DNA of 64,000 nucleotides from Theionarchaea archaeon (GTDB lineage: Archaea; Methanobacteriota_B; Thermococci; Methanofastidiosales; SZ-28-30), in assembly GCA_018992685.1 (NCBI GenBank), contig JACVGT010000034.1, forward strand, positions 14,735 through 78,734, given 5' to 3'. A program made the position numbers and the translations under genes. Shown here one piece after another: positions 46,972 to 57,142 of the stretch. Below the pieces are notes generated by a model. It saw only the letters and a list, made by a program, of their open reading frames with translations, made no database searches and was not told the DNA's origin. Each line of letters begins with the position of its first letter. Position 1 is the first letter of the stretch.

Positions 46972-47217
46972 ATGGATCCCTTATATGTTGTGAATCTGGT
47001 CCTCTGTATCATTATCGTGGCTCTCGGATACTGGGGTTCCAAGAAAAGTGGCGATTCAGTACCGCTCTACATTGGCATTGCCTTTGGACTTTTCGGTATA
47101 TCACATTTGTCAATCCTTTTGGGGCTGAAGGACACCCTCGAAACCCCTCTGATTATTGTCAGATTGTTGGCATACCTGGTAGTGATATTCGCCCTGTACA
47201 AAGTTGCCAAGAAATAA
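46972..47217 (+). CDS. Small 3-TM membrane protein
   Basis: GAGG RBS; TATA tttataag ~46920; T-rich terminator after stop. Confidence 0.75.
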   Translation: MDPLYVVNLVLCIIIVALGYWGSKKSGDSVPLYIGIAFGLFGISHLSILLGLKDTLETPLIIVRLLAYLVVIFALYKVAKK

Positions 47218-47294: not shown

Positions 47295-48269
47295 TCATCC
47301 AACGACTGACGGATCTTTTCTCCAGTAGCATTGTACTAATGCATGTGCTTCACTCTGGATGATCTTTCTCTTGAGAAGGTCTCGAAGAAGCAGTGGAATG
47401 TGCAGCCTGTTGATGTCCTGCATCACATAGTCATCACTCTTCATGGAGCCCCTGTCCAGCCACACATCCATGAACAGGTTGTCTGAAACCCTGTAGAACC
47501 AGGTAGTGGTGGGTAGGTGAGAAAAGAGCTCAATGACGAAATCTTCATAGTCGGTCTCCACCATGAAGACATAGGGGTCGTATGCAGGGACAGTCTCGGG
47601 GAAGTAGCACGTGAAGATGGTGCAGCATTCAGGAAGGCGTTCCAGCCACTGGTACGCACTTCCACTCCAGATATTGTGTTTGGCCTTGACGATGGGCTCC
47701 AGTGGTTTCCTGAGATTGTATTTCAATTCTCTGAAGAGTATTTCATCCGTCTCATTCCATTCTATGGATTCTGACCAGTGTGTGTTGATGAGCCCCTGGG
47801 GTAAGTATGTCTCTGGATCAAAGGTGTCCACCATTTCCTGCATGGTCTTGATGGAGTGTTCCCACGAGTGGTCTGGAGCATATGAGATATAGTAGTCCGA
47901 ACGACGTCCTCCCACCACAACCCCATCCAGGTCAAGCTCTTTCAGAGAGATAATGCGCAGATTTGAAAACCCATCCATGAGGGTGTGGTAGACGACATCA
48001 CTGTCTTGAGTGTATGTGCGGAATAACCCGATGGGATCATCACTGCGAATAAAGTAGACATATTCTGCAAAACTCGAAAATGATCTCTTTCTGATCTGTG
48101 GCCCCACAATGTATCCTTTCTCAACTGCGTCTCTTAACCTGGCGCCTGCCGTATTACGGTTTATCCCTAATGCGCTGGCAGCGTCTTTAACCTTGACCCG
48201 GGGGGACCTGTCCAACAGCTGGTATATGATCCTGTATTCTCTTTTGAGGCGTTTTTCAGTGAACTTCAT
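47295..48269 (-). CDS. Double-HTH (Lrp/AsnC-like wHTH) regulator, copy 1
   Basis: N-terminal IYQLLDRSPRVKVKDAASALGINRNTAGARL...GYI; second DEILFRELKYNLRKP... module; ATG 48269 with AGGT RBS. Confidence 0.75.
   Translation of the reverse strand: MKFTEKRLKREYRIIYQLLDRSPRVKVKDAASALGINRNTAGARLRDAVEKGYIVGPQIRKRSFSSFAEYVYFIRSDDPIGLFRTYTQDSDVVYHTLMDGFSNLRIISLKELDLDGVVVGGRRSDYYISYAPDHSWEHSIKTMQEMVDTFDPETYLPQGLINTHWSESIEWNETDEILFRELKYNLRKPLEPIVKAKHNIWSGSAYQWLERLPECCTIFTCYFPETVPAYDPYVFMVETDYEDFVIELFSHLPTTTWFYRVSDNLFMDVWLDRGSMKSDDYVMQDINRLHIPLLLRDLLKRKIIQSEAHALVQCYWRKDPSVVG
47314..48139. repeat. Direct repeat copy 1 (of 48813-49635)
   Basis: About 15 mismatches in ~775 aligned nt by manual count, excluding divergent block 47649-47699. 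Confidence 0.95.
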
Positions 48270-48561
48270 GTCTCTTACCTTTTCGATTTGCAAGATCCTC
48301 CAACCAGTCACACGTAGCTCTGGTTGAACAGAGATGCCTTTCCGAGGTGGGTTCTCGTTTCACCCTTAAAAGATTTTCTGCTTTCAAAGGGATCACTTGA
48401 GTCTTAGTCCAAGAAAAATTGCAGGAATCATTCATAGCTGCTTTAGATTCACTCGGGAGTCTCTAGATTCTGAAATCTTGAAGTATGGCCTGGTAAGGCT
48501 GAAAGCTTGCCTAGAAGAGTCGTGAAGCGACTTTACATTTCGGATTTGCCGTGTTTGATGG

Positions 48562-48603
48562 CAACATTTTTAAAGTAGGCATGAGAATTGAGTAACGAGG
48601 TGG
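48562..48603 (+). promoter_or_regulatory. TATA box and RBS of peptide gene
   Basis: caacattttttaaag then GAGGTGG just upstream of ATG 48609. Confidence 0.55.
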
Positions 48604-48608
48604 AAGAG

Positions 48609-48800
48609 ATGAAAAAGATCTTGGTTCTCCTGCTCTTGGTAGGGGTTTTCATAGGAACCTCAGTGACGGCTGCTGAAGCTTGTGGAGACGTCTTCTCTGA
48701 CGACACTGAACCAGAAGATCCCGCACCAGGGAATGCAGCTCCTGATAACCCGCTGCCTCTTGGTGGAGGCGGTGGAAACGGTGGAGGCGCTCCAGGTTAG
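48609..48800 (+). CDS. Small secreted peptide (63 aa) with Gly-rich C-terminus
   Basis: MKK + hydrophobic signal peptide + acidic/Pro spacer + NPLPLGGGGGNGGGAPG; own TATA and RBS. Confidence 0.8.
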   Translation: MKKILVLLLLVGVFIGTSVTAAEACGDVFSDDTEPEDPAPGNAAPDNPLPLGGGGGNGGGAPG

Positions 48801-48802
48801 AT

Positions 48803-49801
48803 TCATGTGAGGTCTTTTCTCCAGTAGCATTGTACTAATGCATGTGCTTCACTCTGGATGATCTCTCTTTTGAGCAGGTCTCGAACCAGCAGTGGAATGT
48901 GCAACCTGTTGATGTCCTGCATCACATAGTCATCACTCTTCATGGAGCCCCTGTCCAGCCACACATCCATGAACAGGGTGTCTGAAACCCTGTAGAACCA
49001 GGTAGTGGTGGGCAGGTGAGAAAAGAGCTCAATGACGAAATCTTCATAGTCGGTCTCCACCATGAAGACATAGGGGTCGTATGCAGGGACAGTCTCGGGG
49101 AAGTAGCACGTGAAGATGGTGCAGCATTCAGGAAGGCGTTCCAGCCAGCCACTGATGTCGCCTGCAGAAATATGATGGGCTTTCATGAGGGGAGTCAGTG
49201 GTTTCCTGAGATTGTATTTCAATTCTCTGAAGAGTATTTCATCCGTCTCACTCCATTCTACAGATTCTGACCAGTGCGTGTTGATGAGCCCCTGGGGTAA
49301 GTATGTCTCTGGATCAAAGGTGTCCACCATTTCCTGCATGGTCTTGATGGAGTGTTCCCACGAGTGGTCTGGAGCATATGAGATATAGTAGTCCGAACGG
49401 CGTCCTCCCACCACAACCCCATCCAGGTCAAGCTCTTTCAGAGAGATAATACGCAGATTTGAAAACCCATCCATGAGGGTGTGGTAGACGACATCACTGT
49501 CCTGAGTGTATGTGCGGAATAACCCGATGGGATCATCACTGCGAATAAAGTAGACATATTCTGCAAAACTCGAAAATGATCTCTTTCTGATCTGTGGCCC
49601 CACAATGTATCCTTTCTCAACTGCGTCTCTTAACCGTTTCCCTGCATTGCTTGGACGCAACTTCAGGAATCTGGAAAGGTATCTGACTTGTATTCGCGGA
49701 TTCTTGTCCAACGTGTTGAAGATTACTCTGACGTCTCTCTTCCGTTCTTCTGGAACATCCAGTATGTTCATCTCCATCTCCCGTCCTTTAAGATCCGCCA
49801 T
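48803..49801 (-). CDS. Double-HTH (Lrp/AsnC-like wHTH) regulator, copy 2
   Basis: Paralog of 47295-48269; start may be 49771 or 49777. Confidence 0.75.
   Translation of the reverse strand: MADLKGREMEMNILDVPEERKRDVRVIFNTLDKNPRIQVRYLSRFLKLRPSNAGKRLRDAVEKGYIVGPQIRKRSFSSFAEYVYFIRSDDPIGLFRTYTQDSDVVYHTLMDGFSNLRIISLKELDLDGVVVGGRRSDYYISYAPDHSWEHSIKTMQEMVDTFDPETYLPQGLINTHWSESVEWSETDEILFRELKYNLRKPLTPLMKAHHISAGDISGWLERLPECCTIFTCYFPETVPAYDPYVFMVETDYEDFVIELFSHLPTTTWFYRVSDTLFMDVWLDRGSMKSDDYVMQDINRLHIPLLVRDLLKREIIQSEAHALVQCYWRKDLT
48813..49635. repeat. Direct repeat copy 2 (of 47314-48139)
   Basis: Near-identical except block 49148-49195. Confidence 0.95.
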
Positions 49802-54949: not shown

Positions 54950-57142
54950 ATGACAGAAACACATACGAGAGGAAAGCTCAAAGAACTGGAAGAAAGATAC
55001 AGGGCCCTTTTTGATAGAACTCTTTATTGTGTGTATATCAATGATTTTGATGGAAATATCCTTGATGCAAACGAAACTGCCCTGAACCTTCTGGGATATA
55101 CAAAGGACGAAATACCTTCCCTGAATTTCTCTGCACTCCTAGACAGTGATCAGCTGGAAGCAGTAAGAGAGGCTACCAGGAATCTCCTCGAGTCGGGATT
55201 TCGGGAATCGCCCGTTGAGTACCGATTAAGGAAAAAGGACGGGTCATCTGTCTGGGTTGAAGCAGAAGCCTCCCTGCTCTTCAGGGACGGAAAGCCTTAT
55301 GCCATACAGGGGATTGCGAAAGACATCACTGAACAGAAGATGACTCTTGAGGCTCTCAGAGAGAGTGAGGAGAAATACAGGTCGCTCACAACCAACCTTA
55401 ACGTAGGGGTCTACCGGAACGTACCAGGGCCCCAAGGGTGGTTCATAGAGGCCAACCCTGCAGTTGTGAAGATGTTTGGGTATGCCAGTAAGAACGAATT
55501 CTTGGAACTATCTGTTTGTGAGATTTTCCAGAACCCGGAAGACAGAGATTTGTTGGACAAGAAGATATCGAAAGAAGGATTCGTCAAAGGTGAGGAATTA
55601 CTTCTCAAGAAGAGAGATGGAAGTACCTTTGTAGGATCAGTCTCCGCCGTGGCAGTCAAAGGTAACGATGGAAGAACGTTATATCATGACGGGATAATCG
55701 AGGACATTTCTGAGAGAAAACATTCACAGAAAGAACTGGAGGACTCAGAAGAGAAGTACAGAACTCTGGTTGAACAGTCCTTGCAGGGAATTGTCATTGT
55801 TCGGGGCATTCCCCCCAGACCTGTCTTTGTCAATCCGGCTGTGGCTGAAATGTCGGGGTACTCTTCTCAGGAGATACTCTCTTTCTCATCAGAAGAGATG
55901 ACATCCCTCATACATCCACAGGACCAGAAGCGCCTGTTCAGAGACTATCAGAGACGGCTGAGGGGGGAAAAACCCTCTCCACACTTTGAAATGCGCATTG
56001 TGAGACAGGATGGAGAACTTCGATGGCTGGAGGCCCATTCACGACTGATAACGTACTCTGGAGAGCCAGCTGTCCAGGCAATATTCGTGGATGTCACCGA
56101 GCGAAAACGAGCAGAGGAGAAGATACGAACTCTCAACCTCGAACTCAAAGAGAGGATAGAAGAGAGATCCACACGAATCGAAATGCTGCTCAATGCGAGG
56201 CAGAGGCTTCAGGTTGAAAAGAACTGGGAAAAAGGATTGCGAGAGATCGTCGAAACCATGGAAAACCTTGGATTTGACCATACGGGCATCTTTCTGGTCA
56301 ATCGCGTGCGAAAAAGCCTTGTTTTTCACTCGGGAACAGGGATTGATCTACCTGATGCAGGTACTGCCGTTCCTCTCAGTGATAGCGAGCATTTTGGCGT
56401 GAGATGCGTCCTCGACAAGAGGACCATTCATATCAAAGATGCTTCTTCTGCTGAAGGGAGCCGAATAGGACCAGGACCCAGTTCCTTTGTATGGATTCCC
56501 ATCATGGTTCAAAATGAGGCTTTTGCTGCCCTAGCTGCAGGGAACTTCCGTAAAGACAATCCTGTTAACGAGGAAGATGTGAAAGATCTTGAGATTCTGG
56601 CAAGCATGTGCGGGAATTTCATTGACAGGACGAGCCTACTTGTGGAACCCGCTCCTGAGGAACTTACTTCTACGAAAATAAGATATTGGATTGACCCATC
56701 TGAAGGGTATACTGTCCTGGAGAAGAAACCAGAACGATCATTGAAGATTTTTCAAGATCTGGTAACCCATGGTATTCCGGGATTTGTCATTTCCAGGGAA
56801 TATCCAGAAAAGGTGAGAAGGAAATACAACCTCATGAAAACGCCGATATTGTGGCTGTCCAGGTTCGAGGTTGATGATGCGCTGAGTCCAGATGATCTTC
56901 CCAAATTGATTTACATCGTGAAGGATTTTACAAAGAAGTGTGAGGAATCTGTGGTCTTCCTTGATGGATTGGAATATCTCATCACCCAGATTGGGTTCGA
57001 CACTGTCATGAAGTACGTGGAAGAGTTGAAAGACATTGTGGTGACAAACAAATCCCGTCTCATTGTCCCTGTTCACAGAGGTGCCATATCTGACAGGGAA
57101 TTTAGTATACTGGAGAAGGAATTTGTGGTGATGACAGAATGA
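54950..57142 (+). CDS. PAS(x3)-GAF-DUF835 sensor protein
   Basis: Three PAS/PAC units; GAF; C-terminal ISR.YP...WLS...VVFLDGLEYL....F (DUF835). Confidence 0.87.
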   Translation: MTETHTRGKLKELEERYRALFDRTLYCVYINDFDGNILDANETALNLLGYTKDEIPSLNFSALLDSDQLEAVREATRNLLESGFRESPVEYRLRKKDGSSVWVEAEASLLFRDGKPYAIQGIAKDITEQKMTLEALRESEEKYRSLTTNLNVGVYRNVPGPQGWFIEANPAVVKMFGYASKNEFLELSVCEIFQNPEDRDLLDKKISKEGFVKGEELLLKKRDGSTFVGSVSAVAVKGNDGRTLYHDGIIEDISERKHSQKELEDSEEKYRTLVEQSLQGIVIVRGIPPRPVFVNPAVAEMSGYSSQEILSFSSEEMTSLIHPQDQKRLFRDYQRRLRGEKPSPHFEMRIVRQDGELRWLEAHSRLITYSGEPAVQAIFVDVTERKRAEEKIRTLNLELKERIEERSTRIEMLLNARQRLQVEKNWEKGLREIVETMENLGFDHTGIFLVNRVRKSLVFHSGTGIDLPDAGTAVPLSDSEHFGVRCVLDKRTIHIKDASSAEGSRIGPGPSSFVWIPIMVQNEAFAALAAGNFRKDNPVNEEDVKDLEILASMCGNFIDRTSLLVEPAPEELTSTKIRYWIDPSEGYTVLEKKPERSLKIFQDLVTHGIPGFVISREYPEKVRRKYNLMKTPILWLSRFEVDDALSPDDLPKLIYIVKDFTKKCEESVVFLDGLEYLITQIGFDTVMKYVEELKDIVVTNKSRLIVPVHRGAISDREFSILEKEFVVMTE

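Follow-up and report, generated by a model that had tools for sequence, protein, structure and literature searches.

Lrp/AsnC regulators are single HTH-RAM units of about 150 aa that form symmetric dimers. A double Lrp-like architecture in one chain is seen in NirDL/AhbA-AhbB, and siroheme decarboxylase is described as a member of the AsnC family that binds its substrate within the barrel (PMC4835899). The twin proteins A and B, encoded in the window studied here (the whole stretch of 64,000 nucleotides that was analysed), resemble the regulators in that each half combines an HTH with an alpha/beta (RAM-like) fold, and in that the first HTH (HTH1) matches HTH_24 and HTH_AsnC-type. However, they differ in having two such units in one chain of 322-324 aa, so that their two HTHs are non-equivalent, in having no Pfam match to the RAM domain, and in that their binding of DNA and of ligand is putative. 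With NirDL/AhbA-AhbB, they share the double architecture, whereas their identity is 11%, a haem-pathway context is absent, and their family is a many-copy paralogous expansion with hypervariable HTH elements.

In opsin genes, gene conversion homogenises most of the gene and the residues responsible for specificity remain different. Similarly, KRAB zinc-finger genes and homeobox arrays are described as having most of their sequence homogenised by conversion, with distinct specificity residues (PMC2604467, PMC8208926). Unlike these cases of concerted evolution, A and B are archaeal, and the parts preserved are a pair of separate HTH modules whose borders are sharp to the codon. On the other hand, the hsdS genes of type I restriction-modification systems are reported to shuffle their target-recognition domains, with inverted, often silent copies and inversion (PMC7394358). 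The likeness to hsdS resides in a conserved frame with two separate DNA-recognition modules, in conserved parts that are recombination substrates, and in the occurrence of all module combinations; in contrast, A and B are two complete co-oriented genes with no recombinase among the 23 neighbouring ORFs scanned, and the short inverted repeat found in them is not conserved. The accessible portions of the literature on transcriptional regulators of Theionarchaea, and on gene conversion and DNA-binding specificity, contain nothing on this family.

Gene B, the upstream twin (48803-49801, minus strand), is an ORF of 332 aa whose probable start at M11 (49771) gives a protein of 322 aa, and gene A, the downstream twin (47295-48311, minus strand), is an ORF of 338 aa whose probable start at M15 (48269) gives 324 aa. 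These starts are preferred because of the N-termini of homologues, those of gene A starting at the equivalent M, and because of the 322-aa database protein P0001, which is gene B at 100% identity. Both genes are arranged head-to-tail as direct repeats, and the peptides quoted for them in the preliminary description are correct against the ORF translations.

A codon-aware alignment of A and B, all parts of which lie on the minus strand, reveals a mosaic. Scaffold 1 (49196-49636 in B, 47700-48140 in A) comprises the helix 3 end and wing of HTH1, the first alpha/beta domain, the linker, and helix 1 of the second HTH (HTH2), with 8 mismatches in 441 nt. Scaffold 2 (48812-49147 in B, where it ends five codons before the stop; 47313-47648 in A) comprises the remainder of HTH2 helix 3 and the second alpha/beta domain, with 9 mismatches in 336 nt. 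Both scaffolds together contain 17 mismatches in 777 nt (97.8% identity), of which 12 fall in synonymous codons and 5 in non-synonymous ones, corresponding to a dN of 0.008 and a dS of 0.077, close to the ~775 nt, ~98%, and ~15 mismatches first counted by hand. The heads have diverged much further, with a dN of 0.61, a saturated dS, and 29% amino acid identity. The B-type head (49637-49801) corresponds to the N-terminus, helices 1-2, the turn, and residues 1-6 of helix 3 of HTH1, and the A-type head (48141-48311) is the equivalent portion of HTH1 in gene A. The N-terminal HTH had been described as wholly divergent, which holds from the N-terminus to residue 6 of helix 3; since the helix 3 end and the wing are within the shared part, this was a slight overstatement. 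Moreover, the sharply bounded internal block lies exactly where it had been placed, being 48 nt in B (49148-49195) and 51 nt in A (47649-47699), a length difference of 3 nt. Mismatches affect 28 of the 48 nucleotides aligned within it, compared with the 17 of 777 counted for both scaffolds (Fisher p 1.3e-27), and the A block is 37% identical to the B block. Outside the genes, the flanks on both sides do not align between A and B.

The AF2 models of A (pLDDT 92.4, pTM 0.90) and B (pLDDT 90.9, pTM 0.88) consist of two fused Lrp/AsnC-like units, each with an HTH and an alpha/beta domain. By VIA, Lrp/AsnC regulators, including the PH1519/DNA complex (PDB code: 2e1c), align with the N-terminal half (model 16-145) at Z 6-6.7, and the regulators 9w4w, 2e7w, and 7fby align with the C-terminal half (model 179/181/183-328/332) at Z 5.5-6.0. 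The helices of HTH1 span residues 18-33, 39-46, and 50-63 in the B model and 5-21, 27-34, and 38-50 in the A model (324-aa numbering), and those of HTH2 over the block span residues 202-209 and 213-226 in B and 190-197 and 202-215 in A. Structure prediction, which the preliminary description had proposed as a check, therefore places the variable segments on HTH helices in confident models of both proteins. As had been claimed, the block falls in the second Lrp-like HTH, in a half that superposes on whole Lrp/AsnC regulators, and it covers helix 2, a turn of three residues in B and four in A, and residues 1-6 of helix 3. In both genes and in both HTHs, the variable part stops after residue 6 of the recognition helix (helix 3). 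The N-terminal variable part is the matching structural stretch of HTH1 together with all that precedes it, and the variable segments lie in the helices predicted to read DNA.

Most of this fold is invisible to sequence profiles. Pfam detects HTH1 alone, with HTH_24 scoring 22.5 bits in B against a cut-off of 21.9 and 21.4 bits, just below it, in A, and neither HTH2 nor the alpha/beta domains are recognised. For example, PF01037 (AsnC_trans_reg, RAM) has no match in either twin up to an E of 1, and it is absent from the 25 families most often matched by 114 homologues, the fold being found by structure comparison. Searches of the PDB by sequence and profile gave weak HTH1 matches only, and NCBIfam gave nothing useful for the twins. 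By hhalign, the two halves of the protein align with the variable stretches of HTH1 and HTH2 in register, at a similarity that is not significant (E 0.15). A single PADLOC match (E 0.0087) was taken as noise. Elsewhere in the window, an Rfam search detected only a tRNA.

One point that stands against a regulatory function is that the closest solved structure is an enzyme. Over the whole chain, the best match is the fused siroheme decarboxylase NirDL (PDB code: 4ch7; Foldseek E 1.3e-6), with a Z of 12.4 and an rmsd of 4.3 Å for 249 residues aligned over model 19-332 by VIA, at 11% identity. Also, the two alpha/beta domains match dimeric alpha+beta-barrel enzymes at Z 5-6.5. Together with the grouping of siroheme decarboxylase with the AsnC family and the position of its substrate inside the barrel, this would fit twins that are not transcription factors and whose Lrp fold serves in catalysis or in the binding of ligands or proteins, as in NirDL/AhbAB, with variable segments that tune a specificity other than for DNA. 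Nonetheless, we regard such a function as unlikely. The identity to NirDL is low, PF22451 (NirdL-like_HTH) matches only 4 of the 114 homologues at E up to 0.1 (best E 0.011) and neither A nor B, and genes for haem or haem d1 biosynthesis, including nir genes, are absent from the 23 neighbouring ORFs scanned (35-64 kb). On the contrary, HTH_24 matches 78 of the 114 homologues and HTH_AsnC-type 32 (E up to 0.1), and 19 open frames of at least 300 aa in the same genome belong to the family, which would be typical of regulator expansions. Moreover, the variability of the family is greatest around helix 2, the adjoining turn, and the first part of helix 3 in both HTHs. Among 106 more distant homologues, these elements rank among the most variable, with entropies of 2.29 and 2.35 in HTH1 and 2.17 in the block, the mean being 1.66.

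We consider it likely that A and B split long ago within a Theionarchaea-restricted family whose proteins are about 320 aa long. Across Theionarchaea assemblies, heads and blocks are 71-89% identical within a type and 21-37% between types. The A head is 73-76% identical to the heads of P0005, P0006, and P0007, and the B head 71-76% identical to those of P0002, P0003, and P0004; similarly, the A block is 89% identical to the blocks of P0006 and P0007, and the B block 72% identical to those of P0002-P0005. In contrast, the scaffold clusters by pair and lineage, with identities of 99/97% for the window twins (winA-winB), 98/97% for P0002-P0006, and 82-91% between lineages. The scaffold tree joins winA and winB as sisters (97/97) and rejects monophyly of the nine rows with an A head (p-AU 1.1e-88), whereas in the head tree the A heads form one clade (98/97) and only one change of type is needed. 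These comparisons between lineages are at the protein level, except for one orthologue of A at the DNA level, a fragment of 173 codons at a contig end of the sister genome G001, in which no orthologue of B was found; a search of metagenomes for nucleotide sequence of such pairs gave one poor locus at 49% identity. The dS to this orthologue is 1.15 for A and 1.09 for B, versus 0.096 between A and B on the same columns, and scaffold 2 of A diverges by 2.7% in nucleotides from B and by 16.4% from the congeneric orthologue. The A block has 6 synonymous and 3 non-synonymous codon changes relative to the orthologue.

As heads and blocks follow type and the body follows lineage, with a low dS between the twins, these data indicate that gene conversion has repeatedly homogenised the body while the HTH segments stayed distinct. 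Two features by which gene conversion is recognised are present: the twins are closer to each other than to the orthologue, synonymous sites included, and the tract has sharp borders with old divergence outside, also in a second tandem pair described below. Conversion of the scaffold, which the preliminary description had offered as one origin, is strongly supported by this comparison between assemblies. In the same genome, the four closest candidates for other mosaic pairs (55-78% identity) have scattered differences. Also, a partial Mantel test that controls for the scaffold leaves a correlation between the distances of heads and those of blocks (partial r 0.29, a value reached in 0 of 500 permutations), but this was not counted as functional coupling because a shared history under scaffold conversion would give the same result.

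A similar mosaic could arise if a young whole-gene duplicate had taken foreign HTH segments from other paralogues, the bodies being alike simply because they are recent. Similar block types do exist in more remote members of the family, where 19 of the 114 homologues have the A-like 'IWxG' form and 18 the B-like 'xIS' form, and all four combinations of head and block exist among public proteins. However, the same two types of head and of block are found side by side in at least four further scaffold lineages, in which the twins share lineage-specific scaffold states, and therefore the same double import would be needed independently in each lineage. In addition, the congeneric orthologue already carries the A block, and the body dS to it is twelve times that between the twins. 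In our view, these observations make cassette import quite improbable.

Mechanisms of site-specific switching were considered for the block. An inversion is rejected, the B block not being the reverse complement of the A block, and so is a frameshift, 28 of the 48 aligned nucleotides being different. In both genes, the block lies between the arms of a 7-bp inverted repeat, but this was rejected as a signal because a shuffled gene is expected to contain about 1.7 such repeats by chance and because its left arm has an uncompensated change in the G001 orthologue. Long inverted repeats of the kind found with shufflons or hsdS were not found at the twin locus, a third copy of the block was not found in 45-52 kb, and neither a recombinase nor a reverse transcriptase is present among the 23 neighbouring ORFs scanned (35-64 kb). 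As for the target of a diversity-generating retroelement, it is rejected since the differences between the blocks affect every base and include an indel, and the types are stable across lineages.

The explanation that we consider likely as a whole is that conversion homogenises the body of the twins, with HTH segments kept as two types that address different operators; the observation itself is confirmed and well supported. Each protein is modelled as a single-chain pseudo-dimer of two Lrp/AsnC-like units, each with a winged HTH and a ferredoxin-like alpha/beta domain. Recurrent intrachromosomal conversion homogenises the body of the tandem genes, synonymous sites included, and two stretches escape it, namely the head, at the edge of homology, and the internal block of 16-17 codons. 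Both contain the same structural element of HTH1 and HTH2, made up of helix 2, the turn that follows, and the recognition helix over its first two turns. The blocks may be held apart by selection and not simply by heterology, with head and block versions remaining type-specific under purifying selection across lineages. Each protein would then read a bipartite, asymmetric operator with two non-equivalent HTHs, and the body common to A and B would serve in oligomerisation and possibly in sensing a ligand, so that a common signal could act on different target sites.

If this is correct, the locus is a natural swap experiment, in which the same protein body comes with either of two versions at each of its two recognition modules. 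The codon-sharp borders would mark the residues that set specificity and serve as ready-made junctions for chimeras. The locus would open a direct way to study how bipartite operators are read by single-chain, asymmetric Lrp-like regulators. Also, an expanded regulator family of an uncultivated archaeal class would diversify its targets while conversion keeps the rest uniform.

A further, tentative reading, to which we attach a rather low likelihood, is that the shared body is a built-in recombination substrate with which tandem pairs re-assort their two DNA-reading modules in natural populations. All four head and block combinations are present in public assemblies. Recognition of bipartite operators would in this case be rewired in a manner akin to the shuffling of hsdS target-recognition domains. 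The identical bodies might, in addition, allow A and B to associate in hetero-oligomers carrying as many as four different HTHs. Of 22 related proteins, 8 carry 'recombinant' combinations. Two groups of pairs on the same contig, a status inferred from equal contig sizes and accession numbers two apart, have one block type in both genes, namely the B block in P0005 and P0137, and the A block in P0131 and its partner P0132 or P0133. Therefore, either the block is sometimes converted and not strictly protected, or those public assemblies are faulty.

The latter concern is relevant to metagenomics in general, as short-read assemblies break or scramble such loci. That the near-identical body or the pairing of heads and blocks in the window results from a chimeric or collapsed metagenome assembly is highly improbable: the assembly does consist of 45 contigs and is 91% complete, the G001 orthologue is broken inside the gene, and the same-block pairs could come from bubble popping, but 17 distinguishing sites are kept between the copies, and other assemblies likewise contain the A/A and B/B combinations. 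Logan contigs stop at every scaffold border, exactly as expected of a two-copy repeat with two bubbles, and none bridges head to block, the phase of these in the window being provisional; no RNA runs are listed for the locus. Misassembly of the shared segment had been raised as a possible refutation. Nonetheless, all junctions between unique and shared sequence are recovered in Logan contigs from runs of several studies. Both heads are joined to the scaffold in four runs from four studies, and contigs of runs X2 and X7 span a whole block with scaffold on either side, one of X7 (record 12) spanning the B block with no differing letters and another (record 9) the A block, with X8 reaching into block A. 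Finally, the same architecture is found in a different genome, the sister genome G001, where a second, independent tandem pair (G001:C55), about 50% identical to the window pair, has between its own two genes a nearly identical tract of ~370 nt with 1 mismatch from the HTH1 wing to HTH2 helix 1, and the flanks of this tract are ~50-60% identical on both sides.

The twin genes lie co-oriented on the minus strand of the window: gene B occupies 48803-49801 (332 aa), and 492 nt downstream of it comes gene A, spanning 47295-48311 (338 aa). The true starts are likely M11 in gene B and M15 in gene A because the homologues have their N-termini there and the window's database protein is 322 aa long. 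DNA alignment and a codon-aware comparison delimit two common segments, one of 441 nt with 8 mismatches and another of 336 nt with 9, and bear out the coordinates, peptides, and counts of the preliminary description. Together, these segments form a scaffold of 97.8% identity (17 mismatches in 777 nt; 12 synonymous and 5 nonsynonymous codons). They are separated by an internal block, of 51 nt in gene A (47649-47699, minus strand) and 48 nt in gene B (49148-49195, minus strand), where 28 of the 48 aligned nucleotides differ (p = 1.3e-27 against the scaffold mismatch rate, Fisher's test). On the 5′ side of the scaffold, the A and B heads, that is, the N-terminus with the variable part of HTH1, cannot be aligned, and on the 3′ side, both genes are unrelated from five codons ahead of the stop. 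The NG86 estimates are dN 0.008 and dS 0.077 for the scaffold, versus a dN of 0.61 and a saturated dS for the head. The 17 sites distinguishing the twins (47313-48140 and 48812-49636) are clustered (codon numbering of A: 4 in codons 177-186, 6 in codons 303-316), and the stretches between them, up to 132 nt long, are identical. The pattern resembles several conversion tracts that overlap and differ in age.

The sole Pfam match of both proteins is a borderline HTH_24 at the N-terminus, found in 78 of 114 homologues, and NCBIfam, PADLOC, and PDB sequence searches added nothing firm. The family is narrow: a profile search retrieves only 268 members at E ≤ 0.001 among 1.84 billion representative proteins; the named homologues come from Theionarchaea/Methanofastidiosia assemblies. 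The genome that contains the window (3.03 Mb in 45 contigs) holds 25 family matches, 19 being open frames of at least 300 aa. Also, a broken or partial member with two overlapping frames and a TGA between them (G000:C11:31360-32104, minus), short fragments (G000:C1:301652-301934, plus), and a copy cut by the contig start and adjoining another full copy (G000:C36:3-269, plus) were noted. AlphaFold2 models built from 114-sequence alignments are confident (pLDDT 90.9 and pTM 0.88 for B; 92.4 and 0.90 for A) and share one layout, in which a unit of three helices and then a beta-alpha-beta domain occurs twice in the chain. Foldseek places the fused siroheme decarboxylase NirDL first and Lrp/AsnC regulators next; in VIA-align, NirDL aligns across model residues 19-332 (Z 12.4) and Lrp/AsnC proteins align separately on residues 16-145 (Z 6-6.7) and about 181-332 (Z 5.5-6.0). 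By these structural alignments, each twin is a pseudo-dimer in a single chain, built from two Lrp/AsnC-like units. The sequence similarity between the N- and C-terminal halves is not significant (hhalign E 0.15), the alignment being in register, with HTH1 on HTH2.

In the model of B, the HTH2 helices span residues 185-194, 202-209, and 213-226, and the variable residues 203-218 correspond to helix 2, the turn, and helix 3 up to its sixth residue. The block of A (191-207, 324-aa numbering) takes in helix 190-197, a turn that is one residue longer than in B, and residues 1-6 of helix 202-215. The internal block had been placed in the second Lrp-like HTH, and the structure prediction agrees. The N-terminal divergence had been described as the whole of HTH1; this holds from the N-terminus through the sixth residue of helix 3, but the remainder of helix 3 and the wing are common to both twins. 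Since both variable stretches end after residue 6 of helix 3, they end at structurally equivalent positions in the two predicted HTHs. Moreover, across 106 more distant homologues, these HTH elements rank near the top in variability (entropy 2.29 and 2.35 for HTH1, 2.17 for the block; mean 1.66), exceeded only by one low-confidence loop.

Close homologues carry the head and block types of the window twins, two of each, with identities to the window's of 71-76% (heads) and 72-89% (blocks) within a type and 21-37% between types. The scaffold shows the opposite pattern: over its two segments, the window twins are 99% and 97% identical, and P0002 and P0006, database proteins taken to be on one contig because each lies on a single contig of 26,673 bases, are 98% and 97% identical, whereas identity between lineages is 82-91%. 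In the scaffold tree (23 rows, omitting P0129 [partial], P0008, P0135, and P0126 [headless]), the window genes are sisters with 97/97 support, and a clade of the nine A-head genes is rejected (AU test, p = 1.1e-88); in the head tree (24 rows), one change of type suffices. The congeneric genome G001 retains 173 codons of the A orthologue, cut off at a contig end. From this fragment, the scaffolds of A and B are equally far: 16.4% and 16.1% nucleotide difference after the block, and dS of 1.15 and 1.09, versus 0.096 between A and B on the same columns. Block A differs from this orthologue by six synonymous and three nonsynonymous codon changes, as expected under purifying selection. Type-wise heads and blocks, lineage-wise scaffolds, and these dS values show that the twin bodies evolve in concert through gene conversion, one of the two origins put forward in the preliminary description. 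The A/B split far predates the separation of the species, and homogenization of the body has followed it, separately within each lineage. Recombinase, reverse transcriptase, and transposase genes are absent among the 23 neighboring ORFs. A 7-bp inverted repeat at the block was dismissed as a signal, since such repeats are expected by chance and this one lacks conservation.

G001 (contig C55, 1405-2478 and 2453-3451) contains another tandem pair of the family, about 50% identical to the window pair. Its genes share about 370 nt with one mismatch, a stretch reaching from the wing of HTH1 as far as helix 1 of HTH2, and a later identical patch of about 46 nt, the surrounding sequence being 50-60% identical. 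The block order is that of the window, with a B-like block in the upstream gene and an A-like block in the downstream gene. In the window's genome, the four pairs next in similarity show neither tandem arrangement nor mosaic, their divergence being ordinary and spread out.

Among 22 close proteins with both head and block visible, seven are A/A, seven B/B, three combine an A head with a B block, and five a B head with an A block. Two groups of pairs have the same block type in both genes: B in P0005/P0137, and A in P0131 with P0132 or P0133. We infer that the members of these pairs share a contig, as their contig sizes are equal and their accession numbers differ by two. Here, conversion may at times extend across the block, a step that homology on both sides makes mechanistically easy, or short-read assemblers may mis-join or pop bubbles within the repeat. 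Logan contigs of four runs, each from a different study, were compared with the locus. In them, both heads are joined to scaffold; contigs of runs X2 and X7 cover a whole block with scaffold on either side, and X8 extends into block A. Breaks in these contigs coincide exactly with the scaffold borders (47343, 47700, 48110/48139, 48813/48842, and 49606/49635), and no contig links head to block. The best-matching run may be the window's own sample and thus is not independent support. One contig of run X1 is exactly scaffold 1 (47700-48139), its depth being about twice that of the flanks, with B letters at three distinguishing sites (47904, 47955, and 48006) and A letters at the remaining ones. 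The simplest account is that a two-copy repeat collapsed and its bubbles were popped.

The Lrp fold, the HTH_24 matches, the many-copy expansion, and a variability concentrated in helix 2, the turn, and the helix 3 start of both HTHs suggest that family members are putative DNA-binding regulators reading asymmetric bipartite sites. On this reading, A and B would address different putative sites via a common body. That the twins are not regulators seems unlikely. In favor of this reading, their closest solved structure is an enzyme of the same fold, siroheme decarboxylase, whose substrate is bound inside the barrel according to PMC4835899; against it, no heme genes occur among the 23 neighboring ORFs.

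A literature search at listing level returned nothing on a Theionarchaea double-HTH family. Partial gene conversion sparing specificity sites is a process known in other systems, and the Lrp/AsnC and NirDL fold is likewise known. What is new is the combination: twins differing only in equivalent recognition elements of both HTHs, with codon-sharp borders, in an uncharacterized archaeal family of single-chain double-HTH proteins, and recurring in a second pair.

At 54950-57142 (plus), 5 kb from the twins, a 730-aa protein carries several PAS domains, a GAF, and a C-terminal DUF835; nothing at the locus indicates a link to them. A small convergent ORF follows each twin (48588-48800 and 46972-47217, both plus); one encodes 70 aa, hydrophobic at the N-terminus and rich in Gly/Pro at the tail, matching no Pfam family, and the other a membrane-like protein of 81 aa with a weak DUF5985 match. 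The accession numbers of the twins in NCBI records differ by two, suggesting that a single gene is annotated between them.
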